The notes beneath the pieces are model-generated. The model did no database searches. It was not told the DNA's origin and worked only from the letters and a program-made list of their open reading frames with translations. From a virus, in IMG/VR virus record IMGVR_UViG_3300044673_000327, positions 21,289-85,288 of that record: DNA of 64,000 nucleotides, one strand, 5' to 3'. Shown in pieces: positions 28,815-53,839 of the stretch. Every line of letters starts with the position of its first letter. The first letter of the stretch is position 1. The position numbers and the translations under genes were made by a program.

Positions 28815-28847
28815 TAGGTAAGCCCTTCGGGTTATTCGAGGATGTAA
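28815..28847 (+). promoter_or_regulatory. class 1 motif TAGGTWAGCCCTTCGGG-N11-TGTAA
   Basis: exact 17-mer core, 10 copies in window. Confidence 0.8.
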
Positions 28848-28863
28848 TCATTCAGGAAATTTT

Positions 28864-29076
28864 ATGACCACTTATGAATACCCGAGAGGGTATCAGATCA
28901 CCCATCACGATAACGGTCAACGATCGATCTCGGTCGTTGACGAGAATGGAAACACGCTATTAGACGCGAGCCTTCCCGCTCGCGACGAATTCGATCGAGA
29001 GTTCACCCGAGACTTCATTCTTTTCTTTTCGGGGATGGTAAGTCCTGAAATATTCGACTTTCACTTCCCCTTTTAA
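28864..29076 (+). CDS. hypothetical protein (cassette gene)
   Basis: 70 aa between class 1 motif and terminator. Confidence 0.7.
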   Translation: MTTYEYPRGYQITHHDNGQRSISVVDENGNTLLDASLPARDEFDREFTRDFILFFSGMVSPEIFDFHFPF

Positions 29077-29081
29077 TTTAT

Positions 29082-29118
29082 TCCCCTCTTCGGAGGGGAT
29101 TTCTTTTTGTCACGGGCT
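29082..29118 (+). terminator. hairpin + T-tract + CACGGGCT cassette end
   Basis: TCCCCTC-TTCG-GAGGGGA, T-tract, CACGGGCT. Confidence 0.8.
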
Positions 29119-29189
29119 GAGGGATGGGTGAGTATCGATCGCCTTCCTTTCATAGCGATCGCCTATCGGTGGGAGACCACGACTCTTTT

Positions 29190-29222
29190 TAGGTAAGCCC
29201 TTCGGGGAGATGGTCGGTGAAT
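29190..29222 (+). promoter_or_regulatory. class 1 motif
   Basis: TAGGTAAGCCCTTCGGG-N11-TGAAT. Confidence 0.8.
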
Positions 29223-29250
29223 ATTCAGCCTTTAAGGAGGCACTTCTATC

Positions 29251-29862
29251 ATGACTACCGTAACCAGCACCACCGTTTCCGCTTCCGTTGCCGTTTCCGT
29301 AGCTCAGTCGTATCCGTATATGACTTTCTACGCGAACGGGAAACGCGCGCGCGTGCAGTTATTCATCGGGTTCGATTGTGGACGTGAACGCGCGGAAGCG
29401 ATCGTGAACTCGATCGTTGCCAAGTATCCCACCGCTTCTTTAGCGAAGTGGGAGGACGGTAGCAAGGTCTTCACCGAACGCTACTGGTGCAATACCCAGA
29501 AGCGTCTCGTGCGTAGCGATCGCAAGGGATTCGTCTTGAATATCCCGATGGGCGACATGGTTGTTCCCTCGGAATCCAAGCCCGGTTTCCGCAAGCTCGA
29601 CGTGTTGCGCGCTTGGGTTAATGCGACCCAGAAGCCCCGCCTTGTCGGGCAACTGGAAGCGAATCTCGCCACGTCAGCGTCGGGTTCGGGCGCGGAAGTG
29701 GACGTGACCGCGGGAACTCAACCCCCCGCGAGCGATCGCCGTTCCGAGTTAGAGGCTATGGCATGGTCTGACCTTCTGAAACTCGCCCAATCGCTCAATA
29801 AGCCTAAGTCTCTCAAGAAGAAAGCTGAACTCGTAGCCTTCATCCTAGAGAACGAATTCTAA
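29251..29862 (+). CDS. protein with C-terminal Rho-N/HEH-like domain
   Basis: ELEAMAWSDLLKLAQSL..KKKAELVAFI; AGGAGG SD. Confidence 0.7.
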   Translation: MTTVTSTTVSASVAVSVAQSYPYMTFYANGKRARVQLFIGFDCGRERAEAIVNSIVAKYPTASLAKWEDGSKVFTERYWCNTQKRLVRSDRKGFVLNIPMGDMVVPSESKPGFRKLDVLRAWVNATQKPRLVGQLEANLATSASGSGAEVDVTAGTQPPASDRRSELEAMAWSDLLKLAQSLNKPKSLKKKAELVAFILENEF

Positions 29863-29879
29863 TCTCTTTCCTCTCTTCT

Positions 29880-29922
29880 CCTTCCTCCTCTTCCGGGGGA
29901 AGGTTTCTTTTTGCCACGGGCT
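29880..29922 (+). terminator. hairpin + T-tract + CCACGGGCT cassette end
   Basis: CCTTCC..GGAAGG stem, TTTCTTTTT, GCCACGGGCT. Confidence 0.75.
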
Positions 29923-29977
29923 GAGAGTACGGGAAGGGAATATGCCGCGTCCTCCCGTCACGAACCATGACTCTTTT

Positions 29978-30010
29978 TAGGTAAGCCCTTCGGGTTATTC
30001 GAGGGTGTAA
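29978..30010 (+). promoter_or_regulatory. class 1 motif
   Basis: TAGGTAAGCCCTTCGGG-N11-TGTAA. Confidence 0.8.
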
Positions 30011-30033
30011 CTTACCACTAAGGTACTTCTATC

Positions 30034-30213
30034 ATGACTACCAAATCTGTTCGTCGCATCATCTTAACCGCTCATGTCGTTGGTTATAAACCAGTGACCA
30101 CCACGGCTAAGAACGATAAAGAAGTTCAACTCAGAATCGTACAATCCCTCGAACATTTCTCGAAACTCGGTGTTCAATCCGATAAAGTAGAAATTCAACG
30201 CGCTTATCTATAA
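30034..30213 (+). CDS. small hypothetical protein (59 aa, cassette gene)
   Basis: MTTKSVRRIILTAHVVGYKP...; not in ORF track; fills the cassette. Confidence 0.7.
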   Translation: MTTKSVRRIILTAHVVGYKPVTTTAKNDKEVQLRIVQSLEHFSKLGVQSDKVEIQRAYL

Positions 30214-30224
30214 TCCATCTCCCT

Positions 30225-30270
30225 ATCCTTCCCTCATCTCGGGGGAAGGATTTCTTTTTTACCACGGGCT
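30225..30270 (+). terminator. hairpin + T-tract + CCACGGGCT cassette end
   Basis: ATCCTTCCC..GGGAAGGAT, T-tract, CCACGGGCT. Confidence 0.8.
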
Positions 30271-30357
30271 TTCGTTTTATTCCTATTACTAACACCTCAT
30301 CCCTGTAGTATGTCGCGTTAGAATATAAGGGTAGTATTTGTATTCCTTGAAAGATAC

Positions 30358-30933
30358 ATGGACGTTACGATTAAGCTGATTACTAGCGTTTCTCAACGGG
30401 ACAGTTTACAGGCGATCGCCGATCGCTACCGAGCCGCGAGGGAATGGTTGGACGAGACGGCAGATCCGAGGCTTATCAGTTACTCGGGGATCTACCAACT
30501 CTATTACGGGGAGTTACGGGAACGTTTCGGATTAGGAGCGCACCAATCCCAACAGGTCTGTCAGGAGGTTTCGATCGCGAGGGGGGTGGCTCGAAAGAAC
30601 GATGGGGTCGTAACTTTCGAGCGGGATTCGTTCACCCTACATAGCGGGGGTTTTAGCGTCTTCGTGGGGAAGTCGTCCAAACAGAACCTATCCCTCAGTA
30701 TAACCGGGCTATCGGGGCGGGAGTATTACGCCCTCAAGTCGGGAGTCCGTTACTACAGTGTCTTCGTCAAGAAGGGAACGATCGCCAAGAAAGCGCGGGT
30801 GTTCCTCGGCGATGACGGTATCTGGCGAGTGACCGTGACCCTCGCCGATCGTCCCGCGGGGAAAGAGCCGAATCACAAGGAGGCGATCCGAACCTTTAAC
30901 GCGGATTGCGTGAGTCGGAAGATCGGGATCTAG
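30358..30933 (+). CDS. TnpB-like N-terminal fragment lacking RuvC/Zn ribbon
   Basis: TIKL..Q..L....RY..A..W, YQLYYGELRERFGLGAHQSQQV resemble the IS200/IS605 TnpB N-terminus; stops before any GIDxG. Confidence 0.6.
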   Translation: MDVTIKLITSVSQRDSLQAIADRYRAAREWLDETADPRLISYSGIYQLYYGELRERFGLGAHQSQQVCQEVSIARGVARKNDGVVTFERDSFTLHSGGFSVFVGKSSKQNLSLSITGLSGREYYALKSGVRYYSVFVKKGTIAKKARVFLGDDGIWRVTVTLADRPAGKEPNHKEAIRTFNADCVSRKIGI

Positions 30934-31595
30934 TACATCGGGGGTGGAAAGTTTTTCTTCACCCCCGTTCTCGATCGCGCGACGACCTTTCCTAACCGCG
31001 CGACAGGCTGTTGAAATAGTTAGAATCACCAAAATTTTTTTCTCATGCAGAGCGGGGTTTCCACGAAATCGCTAGATATATTATTAGATATTTTTTAAAT
31101 TCTTCTTTCTTCTCCCGAACACCTGTACTGTACGAGGAACTTAGTACGATCGGGGGAGGGGAAAGGGAGAGGAGAGGAAGGAATGAGTTTTTATTTTCTT
31201 TTTCAGTCGTGGGATGGATAGACCCCCGAGTGTTAGCGAGGGGATGGGGGTGATGGAGAGATGGTAGACGGGAGCGAACGCTATCCCCCTCCCGCGGGAC
31301 GGAGAGACTAGGGCGAGGTTTAAATCCCCTCTAGTAGGCTTCGGGATAGTCGGCTATCTCTTTACCCCACTCGTGGGATTCAAGACCTTTAAGCGAGGTT
31401 TATAACCCACTAGAGAGGGCTAAGGACTAGGATTATCCTCTCGTGTTAACCCAAGTCTTTTCGAGGGGAAGAGATCGCCCGCCCCGTGTAGTATGTTTGT
31501 AGTTCACTTATCAAGAGCGTTGACGTTCCCCGATCGCCCCGTTATTAAACATCGCAACTATGCTACGTCCTCTATAGTTGCTGTTAGAATTAAAG

Positions 31596-31622
31596 GATAG
31601 CTACGCTATATAGGGTATGAGT
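31596..31622 (+). promoter_or_regulatory. class 2 motif
   Basis: GATAGCTACGCT-N10-TGAGT upstream of ssb. Confidence 0.75.
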
Positions 31623-31738
31623 TAATTCGTTGGGGTAATTAACTCTATCTTCTTCTTTCATAGAGCTTTCGGTATTAGTAGATCGTTCTAGGAAGGGAAA
31701 GATATTTCCGAACTTGTCGTCTACCCCCGACTCTTTTT

Positions 31739-31771
31739 TAGGTAAGCCCTTCGGGGTAATAGTAATTGTAA
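31739..31771 (+). promoter_or_regulatory. class 1 motif
   Basis: TAGGTAAGCCCTTCGGG-N11-TGTAA. Confidence 0.8.
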
Positions 31772-31796
31772 TCAACTCAACTTGAGGTTTAATTCT

Positions 31797-32285
31797 ATGC
31801 GTAGCATGAACGTCCATATCATCTCGGGCAACATCGGCGGATATATCACCAAAGTTCGCAACGAACAAGGTGAACTCGAACGTAAGTTCTTCGACCGTCC
31901 AGTGATGAGCAAGACTTCTTCTGGCAAGAAGCTTATCATCCTGACCGTCGCCGTGACCGTCGGTGTCAAGAAAGGTGACGAGTGGACGAACGAAACCCTC
32001 TGGAAGGAATTCCGCTTCTGGGATAACGATGCCTCTTTCCTCGCGGAGTATTCCGCTCAGGGAAATTTCATCGAGATCCAGTACGAGGAAATCCCGAACG
32101 TTTGGATGGACGAGAACGGCAAGAAACGCTACGGCGATCCCGATCTCCGCGTCGTCCGGTTCGTTCTTCCTAAGATGAATCGTTCTGCCAAACCCTCGAA
32201 CGGTGACGATGACTTCGAGGCGATGACCGTCCCGACCGAGGCTCCCGAACTAACTGCCGAAGAGTTAGCCGACATCCCCATGTAA
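31797..32285 (+). CDS. ssb: single-stranded DNA-binding protein
   Basis: MNVHIISGNIG, VAV, TLWxxFRFW OB-fold pattern; acidic tail ELADIPM. Confidence 0.8.
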   Translation: MRSMNVHIISGNIGGYITKVRNEQGELERKFFDRPVMSKTSSGKKLIILTVAVTVGVKKGDEWTNETLWKEFRFWDNDASFLAEYSAQGNFIEIQYEEIPNVWMDENGKKRYGDPDLRVVRFVLPKMNRSAKPSNGDDDFEAMTVPTEAPELTAEELADIPM

Positions 32286-32311
32286 TCCCGATTTCAATCT
32301 CCTAATCCGGC

Positions 32312-32359
32312 TCCCTAGTCCTCTTCGGAAGACTAGGGATTTTCTTCTTTCCACGGGCT
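32312..32359 (+). terminator. hairpin + T-tract + CCACGGGCT cassette end
   Basis: TCCCTAGTC..GACTAGGGA, T-tract, CCACGGGCT. Confidence 0.8.
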
Positions 32360-32387
32360 TTCCCCCAACTCTCAACAGGTTATCCCC

Positions 32388-32654
32388 ATGAGCTACGAAT
32401 ACCAGTACGACACCGATCGCTATCCCGTTCCCGCCTATCCCGAGAACGAACACCTGGACGAACCGACCCTCACTCCCTACGACAAGGGGCTATTCGACGG
32501 AGTGACCTATAACCTTTCCGAGGAATTGATCCGGCACATCGACGATGCCGATTACGTTCGGGGATACCTCGATGGAGTGCGGGAGGCGATCGCTTCCAAG
32601 AGATACCTTCTCTCCCTACAGGGGAAGGTTAAACCCCATCCCGATAGCTTCTGA
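32388..32654 (+). CDS. hypothetical protein
   Basis: 88 aa; YDKGLFDG / YVRGYLDG repeat. Confidence 0.65.
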   Translation: MSYEYQYDTDRYPVPAYPENEHLDEPTLTPYDKGLFDGVTYNLSEELIRHIDDADYVRGYLDGVREAIASKRYLLSLQGKVKPHPDSF

Positions 32655-32818
32655 ACGCGGTACGCTACGCTCGAACTACAATTCGGGGAAGTAGGATTGA
32701 CCCGGTTCTCTCCGTTCCCCGTCAATCCCCCGCGTACCCTCTAGAATATTTTCGGGGTAGCCTTTTCCATCCCCCCGAATATCTCTTTTCCCTACACGCG
32801 CGGGTATTATATCTCTAT

Positions 32819-32852
32819 TAGGTTAGCCCTTCGGGGCGTTCGGCAGTTGTAA
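32819..32852 (+). promoter_or_regulatory. class 1 motif
   Basis: TAGGTTAGCCCTTCGGG-N12-TGTAA. Confidence 0.8.
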
Positions 32853-32870
32853 TTCCACTTGAGGTTTATT

Positions 32871-33074
32871 ATGCGATTAATAACGATTGTCGGTGATGCG
32901 GTTCCCCGTGGCGGGACATATCACGCGGTAGCCGTGTACGAAACTTCTGCGGGTCGTCGTACCAAGACCGTAACTATTCCGGGATTTACCGGAACCTATC
33001 GAGGGTTTTGGGATCGACAACCTTTCGATGAAGTATTGAACATCGACGAAGTTCCTAGTTGGCTATTGAAATAA
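32871..33074 (+). CDS. hypothetical protein (cassette gene)
   Basis: ATG at 32871 with GAGG SD; cassette end variant GTCGCGGGCT at 33124-33133. Confidence 0.7.
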   Translation: MRLITIVGDAVPRGGTYHAVAVYETSAGRRTKTVTIPGFTGTYRGFWDRQPFDEVLNIDEVPSWLLK

Positions 33075-33132
33075 TTCTTTTATCTCTTTCCTTCTCTCAT
33101 CTCGGGGGAAGGATTTCTTTTTTGTCGCGGGC

Positions 33133-34743
33133 TTAATTCCTCGCGTGGAATTCCTCCATCGCAGTCTCCAGTCTCCGACGTACACCCAATCCCTTGAAGG
33201 CGAGGGCGAGGGAATCCACACAATCGTTATAGGCAACGGAACCGAATTGGGTTAGCTCGTTAATCCACGGACTCCAATCGATATACCGATTGAAGTAGAC
33301 TAACCCGTTGTGGAATAGACCCGTCATGCCGAGAAGATGACTCAGCTTATCGCCCCCGAGTTTGATGCCGTACACCTGCATCGAGTACAGTCCCTTCTCG
33401 TTGTGGATGTATTGAGTGAAGTCCATGACAAGGGATGCCTGATACGCCACGTCCTCGATGTAAACACGCCACGGGGTAACGCCATCGTCCCATTCCTCGT
33501 ATAGTTCCAATATCACCTCGCACTTATCGAGGTTGGATACCCACTTCCCGCGTCTACCATCGAGAACGTAGAAATGATCGCCTCTTTTCCCGAGTAGGGT
33601 GATGACGGTATAACAGGCTTTTTCTTTCTCCGATACGGCGAGATCGATACCGATAGCGAAGGAATCGAACGCGGTTCCGAGGGGGATGTCTTTGTAGAGA
33701 ATCCACGAGGGATCGATGCTCATCCCCTCGACTCGAACGACAACGTTCTGGTACTGGAACGAGAAGCCGAAGGGGTCTTCCCTCTGGAGTGTCTTGAGCT
33801 TTTCTGTCGGCCACCAATCGGGCCAGTAGGAAACGAGATTCCCCGAACCGTCATCGATAAGCGCCGATTGCTCGATAACCTTCCAGCCCTTTTCGGTCGT
33901 AAAGTCGGTGCAGTATATGTCATCGGGACGCATCCGAGTCCCTACACAGATCATCCGACCCCCATCGAGTAGGGTCGGTTTGATAACCGAATGGAACTTG
34001 GTTTGAATCTTCTCTCTCGTCTTGAGACTGGCGATGTCATCGGGAGATTTGATGATGTCGTCGAAGATAATAAGATGAGTACGCTTACCGACAATGGAAC
34101 CGGTGATACCCGTCGCGAGCATCGTGTAATCCTCGCCCCCCGTGTTATCGATTCCCGCCCACTTGCGATCGATCGTCCAGTAAGTATCGCTCCATTTATT
34201 CCCCTTGCGAATACAGGGAAAGACTTTCCGGTATTCTTCCCCGGTGAGGGTGTCTTTGATGATACCGCTTCTAGCTAGAGCGATCGCTTGAGAGGCGGAA
34301 GCGTAAAGAATCTGTAAGGCGATACCTTCGAGGGCGTGAGTACCGATCGCCCATGCCACGAACATATCGATGCGGGTACTCTTCGCCGAACCGCGAGGGC
34401 TGAGGATCAGGATATTATCCCCAGCTATCCCTCGAAGGTGTCGGCTATCGTTGCCCGTGACGAGGTGTTCGTCCCATCTCTTGTGATGCTCCGCCCCCGC
34501 GAGAGATTTATCGGGGGGTAGATTACGGGTGACATACCAACAGAAGTAATCGAAGTCTTTCCTCGCCCGAAGAATCTCCTCGTCGTCGGTATGCCATCGA
34601 TTCTCTTTTGCGATCGCCCCCTGCCGTTCTAGTTCTCTCTCCTCGGCGCGGGCGATCTCTATATCCACGAGAGCGCGACGGTATCGGTTCTTCTTGCCCG
34701 TACCGCTCGACCTGTTCCCCCTCGTTCCCGTCCTCGATGCCAC
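33133..34743 (-). CDS. terL: terminase large subunit
   Basis: SPRGSAKST Walker A, LIIFDD Walker B, GTR, IGIDLA, NDCVDS nuclease motifs. Confidence 0.95.
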   Translation of the reverse strand: MASRTGTRGNRSSGTGKKNRYRRALVDIEIARAEERELERQGAIAKENRWHTDDEEILRARKDFDYFCWYVTRNLPPDKSLAGAEHHKRWDEHLVTGNDSRHLRGIAGDNILILSPRGSAKSTRIDMFVAWAIGTHALEGIALQILYASASQAIALARSGIIKDTLTGEEYRKVFPCIRKGNKWSDTYWTIDRKWAGIDNTGGEDYTMLATGITGSIVGKRTHLIIFDDIIKSPDDIASLKTREKIQTKFHSVIKPTLLDGGRMICVGTRMRPDDIYCTDFTTEKGWKVIEQSALIDDGSGNLVSYWPDWWPTEKLKTLQREDPFGFSFQYQNVVVRVEGMSIDPSWILYKDIPLGTAFDSFAIGIDLAVSEKEKACYTVITLLGKRGDHFYVLDGRRGKWVSNLDKCEVILELYEEWDDGVTPWRVYIEDVAYQASLVMDFTQYIHNEKGLYSMQVYGIKLGGDKLSHLLGMTGLFHNGLVYFNRYIDWSPWINELTQFGSVAYNDCVDSLALAFKGLGVRRRLETAMEEFHARN

Positions 34744-35119
34744 TAAAGATCGCCCCCGTCTCTACACGGGTCTTATCTTTCCTACATCGGGGGACTCGGG
34801 GTACAATCTAACGAATTCAGGTTTCATGATAGAAGGCTCGGGTGTTCCATCTCTTCAGCGCGAGCGAAGCGCTGGCGTAGCCAGTTCGCCCCACCTTTTT
34901 CCTATTCCGATCGCGTACAATGAAGAAGTACACCGAGACGGTCGGTAAATTGTACTAGGTTCGGAGAGGGGGCGATCGTGGATCACCCCCTCTCTTTATG
35001 GTTGGATTATTTGTTTTTAGAATCACCATTCTGCACACCGAATAATATTCCTGATAGTAATCCTTTTGAATCGGGAAAGACGATCGCTAATCCCTTCTTT
35101 CGAGTATCGAGTCTTTTTT

Positions 35120-35152
35120 TAGGTTAGCCCTTCGGGTTGATCTGTAATGTAA
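35120..35152 (+). promoter_or_regulatory. class 1 motif
   Basis: TAGGTTAGCCCTTCGGG-N11-TGTAA. Confidence 0.8.
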
Positions 35153-35202
35153 ACCACCCCACTCTCTTCACGGGGTATTTTCAACCAAAGGATTAATCGA
35201 TC

Positions 35203-35523
35203 ATGAATACTTTCCATCACATCATTGACCTCTGCATTATTCTCTCCGCTTTATCTTTAACCCTTCTCTCCTTTCTTCCTCTCCTCTTTAAAGGGATTAT
35301 CTGCCTCCAGAAGTTCCCGAGCAAAGTCCGTCAATGCCGAGCCGACAAACGACAAGCTCTCTACCGTCAAGCTGTTGCTCGTGAGTTCGATGCGTTGATG
35401 AAACATCCCTATCACGATCTCAAGAAGTACGTTCGACATCTCGCCCTACCGACCGACGATATGAAGAAGCCTACGATAGCGTGGGCGATCGCTAACTATC
35501 ACGTTCAGAGTTACGGTCTCTAG
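35203..35523 (+). CDS. membrane-anchored protein with Rho-N/HEH-like C-terminus (cassette gene)
   Basis: N-terminal TM; LMKHPYHDLKKYVRHL..MKKPTIAWAI; cassette end CCACGGGCT at 35562-35570. Confidence 0.6.
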   Translation: MNTFHHIIDLCIILSALSLTLLSFLPLLFKGIICLQKFPSKVRQCRADKRQALYRQAVAREFDALMKHPYHDLKKYVRHLALPTDDMKKPTIAWAIANYHVQSYGL

Positions 35524-35660
35524 TCTCTTCCCCCCCTCCCATCGGAGGGGATTGTCTTTTCCCACGGGCTTTCGATAGAATCCCCGGTTAGTCTCGCACT
35601 AACATCTCGACCTTTGACGGACTGCTTTAACTTTAAGCTACGGGGAGCGTGACTATTCTA

Positions 35661-36254
35661 TCACCCTTCCTTCGCCTCGATCAAGATCGTCTCGATCGCT
35701 TTCTCTAAAGCCTCCTCGAAAGAACTCCCCTTGAAGATCTCCCGTAACCCATCCGCCATGCGCATCATCCCCGCTTTCTCGAACTCCTCTTTCTCTTGAA
35801 GATTGCCGATGCGGATGAAGGTATCGATCGCCTTGACCGCGCTGTTACGGAGGTGCGGGAGAACCTGTAGGAACTTCTCGTCGGGGATGGAATCCTGCCC
35901 GGCTTTCACTCTCATGGTCGCCATGTCCAGATCCTCTACCGTATCCACGATCAACTTCTGTATCGTGCCGATAGGATCGAATCCCCGATAGTCCGCTAAC
36001 TTCTCGTTGAGGGCTAAAGCTCTGGCTCCCGCGGTCTTATATCTCTCGTACCAATTACTCACCCCGTCGATCGATACCTTGAACTCGGGACTGAGATCGA
36101 GAAGGTATCTCTGGATGTCCGATAGTCGCGGGTTAGGACGGTTGGCGATCGCCAGTAATCCCGCGTCCTGATCGGGAGTTAGCATCTCGCGGAACCTATC
36201 GATCTTTGTCGGGGGAGATTTACGGGGTTTGAGTATCGGTTTAGCGTCAGCCAT
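35661..36254 (-). CDS. putative terminase small subunit (Mu gp27/DUF3486-like)
   Basis: helical 197 aa with HTH-like N-terminus, upstream of terL on same strand. Confidence 0.5.
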   Translation of the reverse strand: MADAKPILKPRKSPPTKIDRFREMLTPDQDAGLLAIANRPNPRLSDIQRYLLDLSPEFKVSIDGVSNWYERYKTAGARALALNEKLADYRGFDPIGTIQKLIVDTVEDLDMATMRVKAGQDSIPDEKFLQVLPHLRNSAVKAIDTFIRIGNLQEKEEFEKAGMMRMADGLREIFKGSSFEEALEKAIETILIEAKEG

Positions 36255-36585
36255 AATAGAGGAGAGGAAGGAATGAATGAATGAATTAATTTATTTTTCC
36301 GTTCTTAATCGGGGTAATTAAGACGGGGGATTAGTATTCCTTTCTTTCTAGGTTTCGTTATAAGCCGAGGTGACAGATGGTATATAAAATCGTTTGGCAA
36401 AGCAAGATAACCGGCTATCGATCGGAGGGAAGTCCGAGTGATAATTTGACAGAGCTTGAGGTGTTGACAAATAGAATGAATAAAGAATATCCAGATATAG
36501 ATCACTGGATACTCCCCGTCGATGAGTCAAATCAAAAAGGGGATTAGTATTCCTTTCTTTCTCTCTCTCCGTATCGAATCCTTTT

Positions 36586-36618
36586 TAGGTTAGCCCTTCG
36601 GGTTATAAGTAGGTGTAG
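36586..36618 (+). promoter_or_regulatory. class 1 motif
   Basis: TAGGTTAGCCCTTCGGG-N11-TGTAG. Confidence 0.8.
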
Positions 36619-36635
36619 TTAATCGAGATTGAATT

Positions 36636-36818
36636 ATGTATATCGCTTTTCAATGCGCCGGTGAAGAACTCTACTGGAAGTCGGGTGGTAAGCGCGAGCC
36701 ATTGGTTCTGACTCTTGAAAAAGAGAAAGCCACTCGAATTACGTTGGGTGTGTTTCCTAAAAACTGGTGGTATCGAATGAATGACAAAGTTCAAGATCTG
36801 GATTTTCAGATCGTTTAA
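36636..36818 (+). CDS. small hypothetical protein (cassette gene)
   Basis: 60 aa after class 1 motif. Confidence 0.65.
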   Translation: MYIAFQCAGEELYWKSGGKREPLVLTLEKEKATRITLGVFPKNWWYRMNDKVQDLDFQIV

Positions 36819-36830
36819 TTGGAGGAGTTT

Positions 36831-36980
36831 ATGTATATCAGAATCAAAGACTATCTTCCCGATGCGAACATCTCTCCCGAAGTTCAAGTACGGGTCGATG
36901 ATAACTTCAACCCGAAAGATAAATACACTCTAGACTGGCTAGAGTATTTGGTCTTACTCTGGAACTCAAGAGAAAAATAA
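36831..36980 (+). CDS. small hypothetical protein (49 aa, cassette gene)
   Basis: GGAGGAG SD; MYIRIKDYLPDAN...; cassette end CCACGGGCT at 37040-37048. Confidence 0.65.
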   Translation: MYIRIKDYLPDANISPEVQVRVDDNFNPKDKYTLDWLEYLVLLWNSREK

Positions 36981-37052
36981 TTAATTCATTCCTCTCCTTC
37001 CTCTCCTTCCTCTCTTATCGAGGGGAAGGATTCTTTTTTCCACGGGCTTTAT

Positions 37053-37793: not shown

Positions 37794-37813
37794 ACTCTTT
37801 CTCTCCTATAGAT

Positions 37814-38881: not shown

Positions 38882-38895
38882 AATTCTTTACTCCT

Positions 38896-43367: not shown

Positions 43368-43368
43368 T

Positions 43369-44890: not shown

Positions 44891-44963
44891 AGGAGGAAGG
44901 AGAGGAGAGGAAAGATATTTCTAGGGTTAGAGTATTCCTATTTCTTTTCCCTTTCCGTTCCGA

Positions 44964-45722: not shown

Positions 45723-45777
45723 GGTATATCCTGTTAAAATAGAGTAGATGGATAATAGATCTTCTAATGAATCGAGA

Positions 45778-45966: not shown

Positions 45967-46208
45967 TAGTATCACCGAGAGCTTCACTAACAGTATGCCC
46001 GATTCTTCAAGAATTATCTTCAGGGTTATTAATAAATTATGTAGAAGAAATATTCGGGATTTCAATCAATAGCTTCGGTGTTTTCCCTCATGCTAGTTCG
46101 TTATCCCTATGCTAGACCCCGATCGCTCTCGGTATTTATCCGAATATTTCTTCTCTTAACTAAAACCCTTTCCTCTCTTTCCTTCCTTCCTATGTACGGA
46201 GACTCGGG

Positions 46209-46235
46209 GATAGCTACGCTACGGGGGGGGTGAGT
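46209..46235 (+). promoter_or_regulatory. class 2 motif
   Basis: GATAGCTACGCT-ACGGGGGGGG-TGAGT. Confidence 0.75.
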
Positions 46236-46255
46236 CTTATTCGTGGGGGTCAACT

Positions 46256-46723
46256 ATGGTAGAAGGAAAAAGCAAAGTCGGTAAGATCGTTATCGGCAAT
46301 ATCCGGAACCTCTCCCCGCTCGTGGGGGTAGAAGACGTGTATATGGAGCGGGAGAACAAAGGGATTCTCGCCAATCCGTTCGTGTTGATCGGTGATAACC
46401 CGAGCGATCGGGATACGGTGATCGACGCGTTCCGGTTGTACTTTAACGGGGTGTTATCGATAACACCCGAGGATCGGGGATGGGATCTTCAGATCGATTT
46501 CATGAAACTCGCTAAAGACATGACTGAAAGACTCAATCCCGAGAGAGCTTTTCGATTAGCCCGAATGGGTATCACGACCCCGAAGTTAATTCACGAGGCG
46601 TTAGATATCCTAGAGGTTAAACTAAAAGCGGGGCAGGATCTGCGGTTCGTGTGCTGGTGCGATCCATTGCCGTGCCATACCCATATCGTTCGGGATTATT
46701 TACTTAAAAGGTTGGAGAAATGA
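46256..46723 (+). CDS. DUF4326-domain protein
   Basis: VYMER..LANPF..RDTVIDAF..CWCDPLPCH. Confidence 0.8.
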   Translation: MVEGKSKVGKIVIGNIRNLSPLVGVEDVYMERENKGILANPFVLIGDNPSDRDTVIDAFRLYFNGVLSITPEDRGWDLQIDFMKLAKDMTERLNPERAFRLARMGITTPKLIHEALDILEVKLKAGQDLRFVCWCDPLPCHTHIVRDYLLKRLEK

Positions 46724-46998
46724 GAGAAGAATCCAAGTCATTAGGGAACAGTACCACGAAACTATTTATCGATCGATGGATAGTCGAGTGTATTCAAGAC
46801 ACGGGGGTTATTTTATTCGAGCTTGAACCCGATAACTGGAAATGGAAGTATACCGCTTGCGGTACTACCTTTCAGTGTCATGGCGACTTCGATACCGCGC
46901 TCGATGCTCTACACGATTTTCTATCTCTTCTGGTTTGCAACACTCGGGATGTAGAAATGTTTAATATCCTTTGTTCTCAAGAGGAGAGCGGAAAATAA
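46720..46998 (+). CDS. hypothetical protein
   Basis: 92 aa, translationally coupled. Confidence 0.65.
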   Translation: MREESKSLGNSTTKLFIDRWIVECIQDTGVILFELEPDNWKWKYTACGTTFQCHGDFDTALDALHDFLSLLVCNTRDVEMFNILCSQEESGK

Positions 46999-47048
46999 AA
47001 CTGAATCGATAACGACCGCGCTAGAAGCTTTCGAGGAGTTTTGATCCT

Positions 47049-47375
47049 ATGACACAATTTCGCTTAATCGGTAACGCTACATGGATATACGAGTTATGTT
47101 ACTCGGTAAAAAAGGTAGCAGAGGATGAACACGGACGCGTCAACGATATATTGGAGGACAATCTTACTTTCACTAATACGGTTGTCGGGGACTGGAGTTC
47201 TTCCAAGTTCGAGGCTCTTAATAGTTACAATATCGGATTCTCTAAATCGGGTGATAAATGTTTGGCACTCGCTAAAAAGCGACGGGATTTTATAGAAACC
47301 GAATTCGGAAGTATTCTTGTTTTCCGAATTACCGGTATTACTGTACATTACACGGAGATAGAGGAAAGAGAATAA
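47049..47375 (+). CDS. hypothetical protein
   Basis: 108 aa, GAGGAG SD. Confidence 0.65.
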   Translation: MTQFRLIGNATWIYELCYSVKKVAEDEHGRVNDILEDNLTFTNTVVGDWSSSKFEALNSYNIGFSKSGDKCLALAKKRRDFIETEFGSILVFRITGITVHYTEIEERE

Positions 47376-47376
47376 A

Positions 47377-47826
47377 ATGATCACCGTATACATCGGCTTC
47401 AAAGAAACGGGACTATCCCCGTATAACTTTCAAGATTGGTTTAGAAAATATCGAAGCCTCTTCAGCGACATCGAGGATAAACCCGTCGAGTTTCCAGAAG
47501 AGATGACGTTCGACGAGAAGATGATCTGTCGGGTGATTCATTTCTATGTAGGGAAGATAAAACTCGTCCGAACCTCTTCTCCCGCGATAAGTGGATTGCT
47601 CGATATGTTATCCCCCGAAGCGATCGCTTTCATCGTTCGATCGCTCGTGGAAATAAATAACCTGACGATCTATACTAATAATCCTACGGTTGTCACTTGG
47701 TTTTTGGTTAGAGCGAATAACGTAACGGTATTCGATAAAGGCAAAGAATACTCGAAAGAGGTTATCGAGTCCGTCTATCACGGATGTATAGACCTATCTA
47801 TCGGAGAGATCGATATTAACCCATGA
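47377..47826 (+). CDS. hypothetical protein
   Basis: 149 aa. Confidence 0.65.
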   Translation: MITVYIGFKETGLSPYNFQDWFRKYRSLFSDIEDKPVEFPEEMTFDEKMICRVIHFYVGKIKLVRTSSPAISGLLDMLSPEAIAFIVRSLVEINNLTIYTNNPTVVTWFLVRANNVTVFDKGKEYSKEVIESVYHGCIDLSIGEIDINP

Positions 47827-48230
47827 ACAAATACACGCTCTACTGGAAAGCGGGGAAGAAGGAAACGATAGAGGGGAACGATCTACGTGACGCTCTCGAA
47901 CGGGCGGGATACCCCGAAACGGTACTCGTATCGATAAGTCATGTATCTTTGGACGAGAACGATTACTGGTGGGATTCGGAACGGAAATGTTGGTCGCTTA
48001 ATAATCCCGAGTCTAAACCCCCGATCGATCTCAAAACGATCAAGCGGGTCGAGTACGTGTACGAAGAAATCCGTCGGTATAAGTTTATTACCGAGGTTCC
48101 TTTCTCGATGGAGACCGAAGAGATGGAAGATCATTTCGAGAACCTATTCGCCAACAATAAAGAGTTGTTTAAGAGCGCGGAGTTTATCGAATCCTCTACC
48201 CAACTCGATAATTTCTCGGTATTCGATTAA
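47823..48230 (+). CDS. hypothetical protein
   Basis: 135 aa, translationally coupled. Confidence 0.65.
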   Translation: MNKYTLYWKAGKKETIEGNDLRDALERAGYPETVLVSISHVSLDENDYWWDSERKCWSLNNPESKPPIDLKTIKRVEYVYEEIRRYKFITEVPFSMETEEMEDHFENLFANNKELFKSAEFIESSTQLDNFSVFD

Positions 48231-48284
48231 TCTCGGGAGGGGGAACGGTTTCTTTTTACCCTCTCGTGGGTATCATGACCCCGT

Positions 48285-48449
48285 TGGGTTAGCCCTTCGG
48301 GGTGTGATTTTATTTCTCTCTCTTTCAGTCCCCCCGTTTGTTGGCGTAGATTATTCGCGAATGAAGGAAGGAAAGAATTTATTTTTTTCTTCTTATCGGT
48401 GGGTGGCGTAACTTTTTTAGGTTAGCCCTTCGGGGGGTATAGGAATAAT
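48285..48449 (+). promoter_or_regulatory. two class 1 cores (48285-48301 variant, 48418-48434) plus class 3-like TAGGAATAAT (48440-48449)
   Basis: read directly upstream of ORF 48469. Confidence 0.65.
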
Positions 48450-48468
48450 TGAAGATAAAGAGGTGATT

Positions 48469-50136
48469 ATGAATCGTATCGCTAATTTAATCCCGAGGGG
48501 GGCGAATGTTTATTCGAGAAATCCGGTCGCCGCGGTTTTAACCAACCCGACGGAACTCGCCCGATCGCTCGGCACGATCTCCCATCCGTACCCTCTGTAT
48601 AGTACGGATGGGCGTTTATTTCTCGATGTGGATACGGCTTATATCGATACTCTCAAACCCCGTTTCACTCAACCTTACGACGATCGTATGGTGAACGGGA
48701 TGGCGAGATTGAACGCCGCCAAGTTTCGGAGTAACCCCGAGTTATTAGAAATGGTTGAAGCTTCGGCGGGACAAGCTGGATTAGACCCGGAATCCTTTTT
48801 GCGATCGCTCCGGCACGAGGTAGTCGGCAACAAGTTCTGGGAAACCCCATCCCGTAAAGCTCCCGATGGAATGTCGGGGGCGATCGAGGCTTTAGCGAGA
48901 GGGTACGGTATGGCGAGACAAAACCCCGATTTATCCCTGCCATCCGGCAAGGTCATCTCGGTTCATCTTCCTCAGCCCCAGCATCCCGTGAATCGGGCGA
49001 AACAGAAACCGCTCGGTGTAGACGAAGGTGTAGCCGATTGGATAGCGAATCGTGACCCCGAGGGTTTGATTTTATTCGGGGATAACTATATCGGTAAGGG
49101 GAAAGCGGGTCAGGCGATTATCCGGGATAAGGATATAGCCGTAGGGATACCGACCAAGAAACTCCCCGCGATGAGTCCCGATTCCTTTCTCTACGATGAA
49201 GATCTCGACGAGTATATCCGACGGGTCAGCCCGACAATCGAGCGCTTACAACAGCATCTCGATCGCGGGGGGAGATTGTACTTCCTCTCCACCGGTATCG
49301 GTACGGGGTTAGCCGTAGCCCGTAACGGACGCTCTCAGAAACGGGTAGGGGATTGGTTGGCTAACCGTCTATACGAACTCGGAGTACCCGAATCGATTAT
49401 CGGTAATCCCCTCGGTGGTTCACTATCCCGTCAGCCCGTCGTCGCGAGTCACGTCGTGTCTTTCGCTAGTCCCAAGATGGAGAGTAATTCCGTGAATAGA
49501 ACGGCTAATATTAGCATCCCCGAATGGAATCCCGAACCCTATTTATCGGGGGGTAAGGTGCTGATGGGAACGGGTCATCGTCCCGACAAACTGGGAGGCT
49601 ACGATATTTATCCCTCGACCCTTAACAAGCTCACCGATCTGGCGGGCAATTATCTAGAAGAACTCGAACCCGATCGGGTGGTATCGGGCATGGCTCAGGG
49701 ATGGGATAGCGCGTTGGCGATCGCCGCTATCCGTAAGGGTATCCCGTTGACCGCGGCTGTCGCTTTCGATGGGGTCGAGAAACGTTGGACTCCCGACGCT
49801 CAACGATTATTCCACCGTATTCTCGACAAGTCCGATAACGTGCGGGTTGTCGGTAATACGGGAAGCGGTCGGAGCGCGGGGCAACTACTTAACGATCGCA
49901 ATCTCTGGATGATCGATAACTCTTCCGGGGTTCTCGCCCTCTGGAACGGGACATCGGGGGGAACGGCTAATGCGGTTCGAGACGCTATCGGTCGCGATAA
50001 GCCTATCCTCAATCTCTGGGATGAGTGGCGGGGAAAACCTACCCCGATCGTCGCTAATCCGATCGCTCCCACTCCTACCGATTCCCGTCCCGGTTTCGGT
50101 AACTGGCAAGTCACCTATTACGGGAAACCGAAATAG
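48469..50136 (+). CDS. multidomain protein: Macro-like domain plus YspA/DUF1273-type SLOG domain
   Basis: ILFGDN..GKGKAGQA..AVGIPTK..GIGTGLA (Macro-like); GTGHRP, SGMAQGWD, RNLWMID, GGTANAV (SLOG). Confidence 0.75.
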   Translation: MNRIANLIPRGANVYSRNPVAAVLTNPTELARSLGTISHPYPLYSTDGRLFLDVDTAYIDTLKPRFTQPYDDRMVNGMARLNAAKFRSNPELLEMVEASAGQAGLDPESFLRSLRHEVVGNKFWETPSRKAPDGMSGAIEALARGYGMARQNPDLSLPSGKVISVHLPQPQHPVNRAKQKPLGVDEGVADWIANRDPEGLILFGDNYIGKGKAGQAIIRDKDIAVGIPTKKLPAMSPDSFLYDEDLDEYIRRVSPTIERLQQHLDRGGRLYFLSTGIGTGLAVARNGRSQKRVGDWLANRLYELGVPESIIGNPLGGSLSRQPVVASHVVSFASPKMESNSVNRTANISIPEWNPEPYLSGGKVLMGTGHRPDKLGGYDIYPSTLNKLTDLAGNYLEELEPDRVVSGMAQGWDSALAIAAIRKGIPLTAAVAFDGVEKRWTPDAQRLFHRILDKSDNVRVVGNTGSGRSAGQLLNDRNLWMIDNSSGVLALWNGTSGGTANAVRDAIGRDKPILNLWDEWRGKPTPIVANPIAPTPTDSRPGFGNWQVTYYGKPK

Positions 50137-50322
50137 AGAGAAGAGAAAGAGAGAAGGGGATTAATTACTTTTTAAAAGAGGGTAATTAATTCTCTCCGTA
50201 TCCGATCGCCCCTCTATAAATTAATAACCTCTCCTTCATTCCTTCCTTCTCTCTCTAGGGTATAGAGATAGTCGGGAGGAATTGTTGTAGATGGGTTACT
50301 CGTGGTGGTAATTCAATTTCTT

Positions 50323-50355
50323 TAGGTTAGCCCTTCGGGGTATCGGTGGGTGTAA
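50323..50355 (+). promoter_or_regulatory. class 1 motif heading the RNA polymerase operon
   Basis: TAGGTTAGCCCTTCGGG-N11-TGTAA. Confidence 0.8.
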
Positions 50356-50379
50356 TTAATTTATTCAAAGTAGCCAATT

Positions 50380-50658
50380 ATGCTTTACGTTGTTGAACGC
50401 TGGAGACAACTTTCCGATAACAGTTGGGTGTTTCAATGCTTCGATGTTTATCAGAACGAAAAGACCGCGCGACGTATCGCCAAGATGTTTCATGACGCGG
50501 ATAAAGAATGGTTCCCAACTCGCACTCCTCGCAAGGTTAAACGTTCTGAAGTATCGACCTTTCTTCGTGCCGCTCGGAAAATCAAAGTAACCCTTAGCCT
50601 GTATCCCGACTTCTCTATGGGATGTTGGGGAGTGAACTTCCTAGAGGGAAGAAATTAA
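50380..50658 (+). CDS. hypothetical basic protein
   Basis: 92 aa. Confidence 0.7.
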   Translation: MLYVVERWRQLSDNSWVFQCFDVYQNEKTARRIAKMFHDADKEWFPTRTPRKVKRSEVSTFLRAARKIKVTLSLYPDFSMGCWGVNFLEGRN

Positions 50659-50678
50659 TCGGAAATCATTTAATCAAA

Positions 50679-50741
50679 AACCTATCGGGGTTGGGTTAGT
50701 AGGTACTGCAATACCTCTTATCACTAACTTCCCGATAGGTT
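50679..50741 (+). promoter_or_regulatory. long interrupted stem-loop in the RNA polymerase leader
   Basis: AACCTATCGGG/CCCGATAGGTT, GTTAGT/ACTAAC, AGGTA/TACCT nested stems. Confidence 0.65.
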
Positions 50742-50769
50742 CCTGTTCACTCAACAAGGTAATTCTATC

Positions 50770-53397
50770 ATGAGCCAAGCCAAATACGTTCCGACCGAGA
50801 AGTTTATTCCCCGTCGGTTCCGATTCAACTCGTCTACAGAAGGCGAGTTCGTGGATCTCCCCGTGGAATTATGCACTCAATACCGCCACACTCTCTTTCA
50901 GGCGATGCACGGGAACGTGGATGACGTGATTCTCGTCGATTGTTCCAAGCTCACCTCCGATGACAAGGGACGGGAGATTAACCCCGACCTTGTTACTCAA
51001 GCACTGACCGACAACCTACCCGATGGATACCGCCTAGACGGGGCTACGGGTAGCCGGAAGAAAGGTCAGGTATTCGCTACCTCCCGTAAGGGAAAGACCT
51101 ACTCCGAACTCTACCTATCCGGTTCCAAGCGGGTATCCCATTATTCGATGCTCTGGAGCGAGAACCGGGCGATCGTTAACCTCTCGAATGTCCGTGTCGT
51201 GGTTCTCGATGATGCCGATTACGAACTGCAAGTAGAAATTGGAGTCGGTGATTGTCACGGTCTAATCGGTCACTCTCTTCATCAAGCGATCGTCGAAGCA
51301 TCAGATCCTTTTCTCAAGTCCCCGATCGATCCTCGGGGGATGCTCCAGTTCCGTCTAGCCCTCAAGTCCAAATGGTGCGCGAAGGGTACGACTCTACCCC
51401 TCGGTGGTGAGTTGGAATTCAAGGGGGAACCCGTCGATCTGATTCTGCCCGCTTCCTCGTTCAAGGGTTCATGTCCGAAGCTCGGTAAGGTTCACGAGTA
51501 CAAATCTCTGTACTTCGGGATCTATAAAGTCTCCCGCACCACCCGGTACTCTACCTCCCATACCGTGACGGGTTGGTTTCAATCCGAGGACTCCAAGAAG
51601 TTTCTTCTCGACGCGGCTCGCGAGGAGATGGAAACCCTGATCGAGAAACGCAAGGATGTCCGCAAGTTAGCCGTTCACTACCTCGATCGCACCGTGGGAA
51701 CGGTTGACGGGGAACTGTCCGACGACCCCGAAGAACGTATCGAACAGGAGAAGAAACTAGCCTTCTGCTCTTACGCCCGTATCTTGAGTAAGGACACTTA
51801 CAACCAACTCGCCCTACACCCGAAAACGAAGCAGTGGGCGAACCAGATTACCGCTAATCTAGTCAAGGATATAGCCCTCGGATCGTTCATTCGCGCCAAG
51901 GGTTCGATGTTAGCCCCATTGCCTTTCCTCAAGGGCGATACGGTTATCTCTCACGATTTACCGACGGGACAGTACGTCTATTGGCGATACCCGATCAGGG
52001 CTTACAACGACATCTTTAAGGTGTACGTTATCAACACAAGAGATTTGCGTTGTCGTCTCGAACGCTATCTCGGGTACTTTACCGATCTCAATCTTCTCGA
52101 CTCGATTTATTTTCAATCTCTCGTCAACTCCGATCTAACGGGAACGGCTTGGGTTTCTCCCTCCGTCGCCCGTAAATCAGCCGCCGATTATGACGGTGAT
52201 TACGGTTGTTTCATTCCCTGTAGCGAGATCCGTCCTCTTGCTGACGAGATCGATACTTGGCAGGAATTACCCGAACCGGTCAAACCCCCGAAGAATCCGA
52301 TTAACGGTTCCCTCGAATCCATCGCCGCCAAGTCGATGTCTAACAAGGTAGGTCTGATTTCCTACATCATCACCTGTTGCCGTATCCTCGGGTGGAAGTT
52401 TCATTACCCCAAGTTAGCGGAGGCTTTACAGACGGAAGTAGACGGTCTAAAATCCGAGAACCCCGTGGATTGGGCTTACGTTAACGATGTTCTAAAACGA
52501 ACGGGTAGCGCGTTTAAAGAAGCGGAGAAGAAGGGAATTCAGGCGTGGGTACGTTGTTACAAGCATCCCGATCTCTATACCCAACGCCCCCTTGTCTCCC
52601 ACTACGACGATATAATCTCCAAACTCTGCAATCTAACATCGGAGATGTGGGAAAAAGGAATCGACCCCGATGACATCTCCCCGTTCCAGTGTCGTTCTAC
52701 TCACGACTTCCGTTGTCTATTCGATCCCCTCGTTCCCTACGAATCGATTCCTAAAGAGTGGTTTCATCGGGCGGGCGATTGGGTTTACGAGTACAAGAAG
52801 ATGTTAGGAGGTGTCCTAAGAATCAAGAAAGAACGCATGACAGTGACCGAGATCGAGGAGTTCCGTCAGGGACTCAAGGAGATAGGCGACCACTTTAAAC
52901 GCAAAGCCGATTCGATCACCAATCCCGCGTCCAAGCTTAAGTTCGCCGCCGCCATGCACCGTGTCCTGCACGATCGCCCCAAGCCCGGCGAGGACAATTC
53001 GGAACGGATCTGCTCTCTGGTTTTTCAGATATTCCCCGACGAGTATATTCGAGCGCTCTCGACCCCTCCCAACTATCAATTCCGGTTGTGGAGAAATTGC
53101 GAGAAAGCACCTTCCGATCTAGGGGATAAGGTATTCAATAACGAGATCGTTCCCGTCAAGATCACTAATACCCGATTCACCGTTAACGGTCAGGAGGTGG
53201 ACGCGCTCTATATGGTCGAACTGCACACGGGTAAGAAGGTAGCCCGTGTTGTCACCGATAACATGGCGGGGTACGTCTCCCTGCCCCTACCCGAGACCCG
53301 TCTCGTGGTCAAGGTCAACTCGGTATTCAGCCCGAGTAAGAAGACCTATACTTATCACGAAGCTCGTGTAGTTCCCGAAGAAGCTCTAGAGTTCTAA
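50770..53397 (+). CDS. single-subunit two-barrel RNA polymerase (YonO / cellular RdRP family)
   Basis: GDCHGLI, QFR..KGT, SSFK, WRYP, ADYDGD (DYDGD at 52186-52200), VGLIS, EVDGLK in RdRP-family order. Confidence 0.8.
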   Translation: MSQAKYVPTEKFIPRRFRFNSSTEGEFVDLPVELCTQYRHTLFQAMHGNVDDVILVDCSKLTSDDKGREINPDLVTQALTDNLPDGYRLDGATGSRKKGQVFATSRKGKTYSELYLSGSKRVSHYSMLWSENRAIVNLSNVRVVVLDDADYELQVEIGVGDCHGLIGHSLHQAIVEASDPFLKSPIDPRGMLQFRLALKSKWCAKGTTLPLGGELEFKGEPVDLILPASSFKGSCPKLGKVHEYKSLYFGIYKVSRTTRYSTSHTVTGWFQSEDSKKFLLDAAREEMETLIEKRKDVRKLAVHYLDRTVGTVDGELSDDPEERIEQEKKLAFCSYARILSKDTYNQLALHPKTKQWANQITANLVKDIALGSFIRAKGSMLAPLPFLKGDTVISHDLPTGQYVYWRYPIRAYNDIFKVYVINTRDLRCRLERYLGYFTDLNLLDSIYFQSLVNSDLTGTAWVSPSVARKSAADYDGDYGCFIPCSEIRPLADEIDTWQELPEPVKPPKNPINGSLESIAAKSMSNKVGLISYIITCCRILGWKFHYPKLAEALQTEVDGLKSENPVDWAYVNDVLKRTGSAFKEAEKKGIQAWVRCYKHPDLYTQRPLVSHYDDIISKLCNLTSEMWEKGIDPDDISPFQCRSTHDFRCLFDPLVPYESIPKEWFHRAGDWVYEYKKMLGGVLRIKKERMTVTEIEEFRQGLKEIGDHFKRKADSITNPASKLKFAAAMHRVLHDRPKPGEDNSERICSLVFQIFPDEYIRALSTPPNYQFRLWRNCEKAPSDLGDKVFNNEIVPVKITNTRFTVNGQEVDALYMVELHTGKKVARVVTDNMAGYVSLPLPETRLVVKVNSVFSPSKKTYTYHEARVVPEEALEF

Positions 53398-53454
53398 TCT
53401 AGAGTACGAACATCGATGTAGTTTATCGGGAGGGCGATCGCTCTCCCTGGTTCT

Positions 53455-53772
53455 ATGACCTTTAAATTACAAATTGAATTGAGCAATCCAAGAACACTAT
53501 CAGATGTTGCTGTGATAGCGCAACTGTTGGAAGCTTACGAGGAATCAGAGGATCTTATTGTAGATTCGGAATTTCTTGTTAATGCTATCTACCAATTTTT
53601 CTTCGCCTTGAGAAGACAACTAATCGACTACGTGGAGCCGAGTGAACGGCTCAAAGAACTTAATTCCTATATCGAGGACTCTGGCGCAAGCTCGCACAAG
53701 CAAAAGTTCGTCCTAGACATCCTGCTAAGGCTATACGATTTGGAGTTGAAGAAAGAAGAAAGGAAGGAATAA
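53455..53772 (+). CDS. hypothetical protein
   Basis: 105 aa. Confidence 0.65.
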   Translation: MTFKLQIELSNPRTLSDVAVIAQLLEAYEESEDLIVDSEFLVNAIYQFFFALRRQLIDYVEPSERLKELNSYIEDSGASSHKQKFVLDILLRLYDLELKKEERKE

Positions 53773-53798
53773 TTATTAGTCTCGATTTTTAGGTTGAT

Positions 53799-53839
53799 AA
53801 CTCCCCCGATGTGGGGGAGTTTTTCTTTTACCACGGGCT
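53799..53839 (+). terminator. hairpin + T-tract + CCACGGGCT closing the RNA polymerase operon
   Basis: AACTCCCCC..GGGGGAGTT, T-tract, CCACGGGCT. Confidence 0.8.

Follow-up and report, generated by a model that had tools for sequence, protein, structure and literature searches.

In a virus record of IMG/VR (IMGVR_UViG_3300044673_000327), we analyzed a window of 64,000 nucleotides that spans positions 21289-85288 of one virus contig (85,288 bp long). In this window, genes or small operons lie between two conserved sequences: a 17-bp left box, TAGGTWAGCCCTTCGGG, and a right box, CACGGGCT, placed after a GC hairpin and a T-tract. Judging from the DNA, we consider it about 70% probable that transcription of one temporal class of units, hereafter class 1, is started by the left boxes and stopped by the right boxes, and that phage-specific machinery reads both. 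Class 1 is most likely the earliest class. The sequence-only reading of this DNA had proposed a promoter and a matched terminator for the phage RNA polymerase (RNAP). The pair itself is supported by the anatomy of the units (fixed spacing, hairpins after stop codons and one-to-one pairing of the boxes), by the geometry seen in a related metagenome contig (L005) and by the precedent of phage P23-45. That the pair serves the phage RNAP is plausible and unproven; the RNAP gene lies inside the regulon and no second RNAP was detected.

The units that start with a left box are as follows (positions refer to the window; ORF, open reading frame):

Unit 1, 28815-29118, + strand: left box 28815-28831, TGTAAT 28843-28848, ORF 28864-29076 (70 aa, no family), hairpin from 29082, octamer 29111-29118.
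Unit 2, 29190-29922, + strand: left box 29190-29206, TGAATA 29218-29223, ORF 29251-29862 (203 aa), hairpin from 29880, octamer 29915-29922.
Unit 3, 29978-30270, + strand: left box 29978-29994, TGTAAC 30006-30011, ORF 30034-30213 (59 aa), hairpin from 30225, octamer 30263-30270.
Unit 4, 31739-32359, + strand: left box 31739-31755, TGTAAT 31767-31772, SSB gene 31797-32285 (162 aa), hairpin from 32312, octamer 32352-32359.
Unit 5, 32819-33133, + strand: left box 32819-32835, spacer of 12, TGTAAT 32848-32853, ORF 32871-33074 (67 aa), hairpin from 33089, variant octamer CGCGGGCT 33126-33133.
Unit 6, 35120-35570, + strand: left box 35120-35136, TGTAAA 35148-35153, ORF 35203-35523 (106 aa, hydrophobic N-terminus), hairpin from 35533, octamer 35563-35570.
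Unit 7, 36586-37048, + strand: left box 36586-36602, TGTAGT 36614-36619, ORFs 36636-36818 and 36819-36980, hairpin from 37004, octamer 37041-37048.
Unit 8, 48418-50136, + strand: left box 48418-48434, no clear TGTAA, gene 48469-50136 (555 aa; DUF7831 and a SLOG/DprA-like domain), no right box.
Unit 9, 50323-53839, + strand: left box 50323-50339, TGTAAT 50351-50356, ORF 50380-50658 (92 aa), RNAP gene 50770-53397, ORF 53455-53772 (105 aa), hairpin from 53799, octamer 53832-53839.

The left box is present in nine exact copies and one copy with a single mismatch (at 48285), on the + strand only, compared with 0.02 copies expected from shuffles. Scans of the window and of the whole 85,288-bp genome confirmed all ten positions given by the sequence-only reading and returned no further copy at up to two mismatches. 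The box forms half of a bipartite signal, in which a T-run precedes the 17-bp box and TGTAAT follows it at 11 bp (12 bp in one copy); the ATG lies a further 15-49 nt on, at 32-66 nt from the end of the box. TGTAA follows 11-12 nt after the box exactly in six copies and as TGTAG at 36586, which makes seven copies where eight had been said to carry it or a one-base variant; the match at 29190 (TGAAT) is looser, and none is clear at 48418. The variant box at 48285-48301 (TGGGTTAGCCCTTCGGG) has neither T-run nor TGTAA and lies within a terminator-like hairpin of -22 kcal/mol followed by a U-rich tract. From this context, it more likely ends the upstream + strand operon than starts a unit.

No sigma-70-like site was found at any box, and such sites did not exceed the shuffle level in either of the two regions scanned; the reading of the boxes as sigma-70 promoters was therefore rejected. 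The invariant CCCTTCGGG within the box could fold on the template strand into a 3-bp stem with a GAA triloop, extended to five pairs in four copies. The left box might thus be a DNA hairpin promoter that is read by its shape, with a CCC-GAA-GGG mini-hairpin on the template strand, as are the promoters of the N4 virion RNAP. We consider this improbable. The stems of N4 promoter hairpins measure 5-7 bp, compared with 3-5 bp here, and no T7/N4-family RNAP motif or Pfam match was found among the proteins scanned. Moreover, the homologous box of L005 has identical geometry without a hairpin, and the hairpin is therefore not a conserved requirement.

The right box follows a T-tract at 29118, 29922, 30270, 32359, 35570, 37048 and 53839 and, as CGCGGGCT, at 33133. 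These are the eight positions at which it had been reported, and at each of them a GC-rich hairpin and then a T-tract lie downstream of a stop codon, as in intrinsic terminators. The hairpins have predicted energies between -13 and -19 kcal/mol and start 5-26 nt past the stop codon. Apart from one A-to-G change, the octamer C(A/G)CGGGCT is invariant in all eight terminators. Its immediate flanks (two bases on the 5' side and those on the 3' side) and four of the hairpins vary in sequence. The right boxes pair one to one with left-box units (8/8). Overall, CACGGGCT has nine exact matches in the window, where 1.03 are expected; the copies elsewhere (at 53241 and 54778 on the - strand of the window, and one on each strand outside it) are all intragenic and have neither hairpin nor T-tract. 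The octamer is also absent from the other intergenic intrinsic terminators of the genome. It starts 10-13 nt after the stem. An intrinsic terminator would be expected to release the transcript 2-5 nt short of this octamer, which places the octamer in the duplex that the polymerase is about to enter. From this position we infer that the octamer could act as a sequence-specific pause or termination enhancer for the reader of class 1.

Unit 9 encodes a protein of 875 aa with the motif AADYDGD and 138 representative homologues, the closest being P0002 (56% identity) and P0004 (37%). By sequence, this protein had no match in PDB, even with a profile, and hhalign against YonO aligned only the DxDGD stretch (E 0.056). 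Its predicted model (AF2, pLDDT 85) was compared with known structures using Foldseek, and the top matches were QDE-1 and RDR2, followed by P32 gp64, P74 gp62, phi14:2 (crAss) gp66 and P23-45 gp96. Since the predicted fold matches known two-barrel RNAPs, we take the protein to be a single-chain two-barrel RNA polymerase. The left box at 50323 and the right box at 53839 bracket its gene, which places the RNAP inside its own regulon. Therefore, the enzyme must come in with the DNA, or else the cascade is begun by a different polymerase. Immediately downstream of the RNAP operon is an ORFan of 1521 aa (window 54051-58616, + strand). It has a Pro-rich tail and, at the C-terminus, a membrane segment. 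A search of 5.8 billion proteins gave no homologue, Pfam and PHROG gave no match, the RNAP profile showed no similarity to it, and none of these comparisons supports it as a virion RNAP.

The sole relative with genomic context is L005, a metagenome contig of 10.3 kb whose RNAP is 31% identical to the one described here; the one metagenome scan returned this contig and a fragment, L006. In L005, a different box, (T)TGACTWCGATGCAGGAGTTWCAC, is repeated six times on the + strand; TGTAA(A/T) lies 11-12 nt after each copy and is followed by GAGG and, 21-26 nt later, by the ATG. One of these boxes heads an operon composed of a small ORF and the RNAP gene. The units of L005 are likewise short and tandem, and they end in near-identical hairpin/T-tract terminators with conserved sequence past the T-tract. 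Judging from these two sequences, the geometry and the TGTAA core are common to both phages and the upstream box is phage-specific. The cyanobacterial HIP1 palindrome, GCGATCGC, is present in 33 copies genome-wide in the virus studied here (0.39 per kb versus 0.015 expected, approximately 25 times chance) and in no copy in L005, in the fragment L006 or in Synechococcus phage S-EIVl. Because of this difference, the hosts of L005 and of this phage are probably not the same. No such motif was found in L006, no repeated box in the 41.6-kb part of S-EIVl examined, and no match in a tblastn search with this RNAP against a phage collection that holds the S-EIVl record. Over these very few genomes, the comparisons favour a link between the start signal and the shared RNAP. 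L005 also carries runs of a CTCAA pentamer between a terminator and the next box (188-208, 572-590, 1134-1150 and 6169-6182), with no equivalent in the window.

A possible though less probable reading is that class 1 is transcribed by the host cyanobacterial RNAP, perhaps after a phage factor, ejected or made very early and bound to the 17-bp box, has redirected it. The phage RNAP would then read class 2 and/or class 3 (see below), and the terminators would be ordinary intrinsic ones whose efficiency the GC-rich octamer raises through downstream-duplex effects. This overlaps with the interpretation of the boxes as promoters and terminators, because it concerns the reader only. Several observations agree with it. 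The RNAP gene sits inside the regulon, just as T7 gene 1 lies within the host-transcribed early class; a hairpin with a U-tract is the native stop signal of bacterial RNAP; and no virion RNAP was found. Furthermore, the MotA box of T4 middle promoters, at which MotA and AsiA redirect the host polymerase, lies 11-12 bp upstream of a -10 hexamer, and the left box has the same geometry relative to a -10-like hexamer. Finally, the two-barrel RNAP YonO of SPbeta transcribes late rather than early genes (PMC5467207). On the other hand, TGTAAT carries a G in place of the -11 A that sigma-70-type factors flip out and require, no TAnnnT occurs at a constant position, and the two regions scanned have no excess of sigma-70-type promoters. 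In addition, L005 has the same core and spacing with an apparently different host and a shared RNAP.

Other considerations also weigh against the reading of the boxes as start and stop signals for phage-specific machinery. Neither a second RNAP nor any other protein with DxDxD and RxP spacing was detected, although ORFans can escape such searches, and the host polymerase, with or without a phage factor, has to be reckoned with as the reader. Class 2 or class 3 could be the true promoter of the RNAP. The comparison between phages relies on one 10-kb relative. Part of the conservation of the octamer could reflect common descent, because the terminators at 29922, 30270, 33133 and 37048, half of the eight, are paralogous. 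Finally, no RNA run containing the phage was found, and transcript starts and stops are therefore deduced from DNA.

The sequence-only reading had also raised the possibility of a recombinable cassette system. Indirect support for it comes from the mosaic identity of the regulatory modules, in which exact repeats of 31, 28 and 26 nt reach beyond the boxes. The 31-nt repeat is shared by units 1 and 3 and the 28-nt repeat by the terminators at 30270 and 33133, while units 2 and 3 match over 22 nt of leader and first codons with one mismatch. As a result, the 5' module of unit 3 is chimeric, with the spacer of unit 1 and the leader and first codons of unit 2. Such a pattern is plausibly what homologous recombination of the type seen at PeSLs, the repeated modules of T4-type phages, would leave, and it is not proof of it. 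New units would in that case arise by ordinary homologous recombination between repeated modules, without a dedicated recombinase.

A stronger version holds that the boxes serve a dedicated mobile-cassette system, integron- or transposon-like, as its recombination sites, with AGCCC/GGGCT as inverted ends. The units are indeed self-contained, three of them stand single and antisense among - strand genes, and their regulatory modules are mosaic. However, the inverted AGCCC boxes claimed for the unit ends amount to a 5-nt match that is expected by chance with a probability of approximately 0.05 (1 in 20), which is near chance. Target-site duplications are absent, isolated right boxes are not followed by remnants of a left box, and no integrase or transposase was recognized among the ORFs scanned, which are part of all ORFs. 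An integron gene cassette consists of a promoterless ORF with an attC palindrome and a nearby integrase; the units differ from this, as they carry their own promoter-like and terminator elements and no attC-like structure. A 1192-bp Logan contig bounded by boxes is a product of the 31-nt repeat in a k=31 assembly graph and gives no evidence of a circle; the three DNA runs with the phage yielded only short contigs. We regard dedicated recombination as unlikely and leave it very little probability.

Taken together, the data are best accommodated by phage-specific start and stop signals. The start would be a bipartite promoter that is not of the sigma-70 type, made of the T-run, the 17-bp box, a spacer of 11-12 bp and the TGTAAT core. 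Transcription would begin at or just after TGTAAT, producing 5' leaders of approximately 15-50 nt that carry the ribosome-binding site. The stop would be an intrinsic-type terminator, with a variable GC hairpin and a T-tract, reinforced by the invariant distal octamer. The reader would most likely be the 875-aa two-barrel RNAP, which would then have to arrive together with the DNA or depend on weak host transcription for priming.

Two further repeated motifs precede genes of this virus. Class 2, (G)GATAGCTACGCTA-N9-TGAGTT, occurs on the + strand only, with the ATG 15-25 nt later, before non-structural genes that include the DnaB block. Its architecture is like that of class 1 with another box, and the spacer is often a G-run. 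Class 3, AGGAATACTAAT, occurs before - strand late genes, usually after a T-run, and in several copies a CGGGG-N-CCCCG hairpin follows and abuts the ATG. Their positions are:

Class 2, + strand: window 556, 18391, 31596, 46209, 58642 and 59871; outside the window, genome 3296, 5517, 10377, 15147 and 21219.
Class 3, - strand: window 4043, 15934, 20016, 20906, 21074, 23741, 30336, 36330 and 36543.

The class 3 copy at 30336 points antisense into units 1-3, and that at 36543 (36543-36554) diverges from the left box at 36586. The arrangement of the three motifs together suggests a three-class programme. Two + strand ORFs, 30358-30933 (191 aa) and 32388-32654 (88 aa), lie directly 3' of right boxes and lack a left box; they may be read-through genes or be served by another signal, and the class 2 copy at 31596 is downstream of the first. 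An isolated GGGATGTAATTAATTTATG at 63949-63954 has no class 1 box and is near-identical to the stretch of unit 9 from TGTAAT to the leader (50351).

The genes of the regulon comprise small ORFs without family match, the SSB of unit 4 (Pfam SSB, E 1.7e-7; PHROG 44), the SLOG/DprA-like protein of unit 8 and the two-barrel RNAP. Unit 8 has no right box, and therefore probably reads through into unit 9. Most ORFs had no family match, in scans that covered part of them, and Rfam and tRNA scans of the region returned no matches. The structural genes of the genome are mostly on the - strand, and a large + strand arm carries DnaB and further non-structural genes. Two of the - strand genes serve as landmarks:

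Portal gene, 24700-26970, - strand.
terL-like gene, 33133-34743, - strand: weak match to Pfam Terminase_6C, E 6e-5.

The placement of units antisense among late genes, as proposed earlier, holds for three single units, with the reservation that terL itself is weakly backed. Unit 6 lies antisense between two - strand genes, and the octamer of unit 5 abuts the stop codon of the converging terL-like gene.

The ends of the contig share approximately 214 bp (window 63787-64000 corresponds to genome 1-214, in exact blocks of 91 nt and 127 nt), and given this overlap the map of 85 kb is either circular or carries a terminal redundancy. The portal protein shares 35% identity with its counterpart in S-EIVl. 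This similarity and the excess of HIP1 identify a cyanophage-like virus, and the HIP1 content points to a HIP1-rich cyanobacterium as the host. The runs in which the phage occurs are labelled as rhizosphere metagenomes. No close relatives were found in INPHARED, by DNA or by RNAP protein, or in GTDB contigs and the JGI metagenome contigs scanned. Searches of IMG/VR with the box, the RNAP, the portal, terL, P0003 or the L005 box also gave none, the few matches being single chance or coding ones.

How single-chain two-barrel RNAPs recognize promoters and terminators is largely unknown. The promoter of YonO was stated in 2017 to be undetermined (PMC5467207), and for P23-45 there are motifs only, with the conserved terminators flagged as an unexplained mechanism (PMC10770324). 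The virus described here offers a compact set of nine near-identical promoter candidates with fixed bipartite geometry and eight terminators that combine a variable hairpin with a fixed octamer. L005, with the same core and another specificity box, amounts to a natural swap experiment. We tentatively suggest, as a possibility that we hold somewhat below even odds, that the start signal is the first promoter consensus for the cyanophage-associated clade of two-barrel RNAPs, with a phage-specific box and a clade-wide TGTAA core. The module of hairpin, T-tract and CACGGGCT would in that case be a three-part terminator, in part sequence-specific and tuned to the enzyme, and the enzyme itself would have to be delivered with the DNA or be autocatalytic. 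Together with its defined signals for starting and stopping, an enzyme of 875 aa would further be a candidate for orthogonal expression in cyanobacteria.

Self-contained units with their own regulatory signals are known from other phages. The morons of lambdoid phages are promoter-gene-terminator units inserted between late genes, with host promoters and no common promoter or terminator sequence. Several of the units described here resemble them as single autonomous units between conserved late genes, and differ from them in sharing one conserved promoter and terminator sequence. Like the promoters of T7, T3 and SP6, the start signal is long, nearly invariant and phage-specific, and across relatives it combines a variable specificity part with a conserved initiation part. 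Unlike them, it is bipartite with a non-conserved spacer, and the two-barrel enzyme is unrelated to T7 RNAP. The octamer recalls the class II termination signals of T7 in that a sequence element contributes to termination; those signals have no hairpin, whereas the octamer follows a hairpin and a T-tract.

The PeSLs of T4-type phages are repeated modules of a terminator and an early promoter that undergo modular shuffling and form mini-circles by homologous recombination (Arbiol et al. 2010, PMC2839356; Comeau et al. 2014, PMC4122927). Composite terminator-to-promoter modules are also found here between small ORFs (29082-29206 and 29880-29994), with exact repeats of 26-31 nt, and their extended identity is the kind of substrate on which homologous exchange acts. 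PeSL promoters are strong, sigma-70-like and read by the host, unlike the boxes. Moreover, the indels and mini-circles of PeSLs were shown experimentally, while the modules described here are known from the sequence of one genome.

The closest parallel is P23-45, in which a virion two-barrel RNAP fused to the tape measure protein transcribes short tandem pre-early units, which include the gene for another two-barrel RNAP that is not in the virion (Chaban et al. 2024, PMC10770324). An invariant 11-bp motif marks the start of those units and a conserved 26-nt hairpin/T-tract motif the end of seven of them; the authors took the latter to imply unusual termination by a two-barrel RNAP (PMC10770324). 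Relatives of P23-45 that lack the virion RNAP must start the cascade in some other way (PMC10770324), and since no virion RNAP was detected here, the same question arises for this virus. The two systems differ in several respects. A second RNAP, fused to the tape measure protein, reads the units in P23-45 and was not detected here. The P23-45 promoter is an AT-rich 11-bp motif directly at the start site, while ours combines a 17-bp box with a TGTAAT core. P23-45 conserves the terminator hairpin itself, whereas here the hairpin varies and the distal octamer is fixed. Finally, the P23-45 units lie together at one genome end, and three of the units described here lie antisense among late genes. 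Both phages nevertheless encode a two-barrel single-chain RNAP whose gene lies within the regulon, and both have short, often tandem and mostly monocistronic units with conserved terminator motifs and conserved promoter motifs that are not of the sigma-70 type. On this comparison, the design of the regulon appears to be the one already known from P23-45, built here with other sequences in a cyanophage-like virus.

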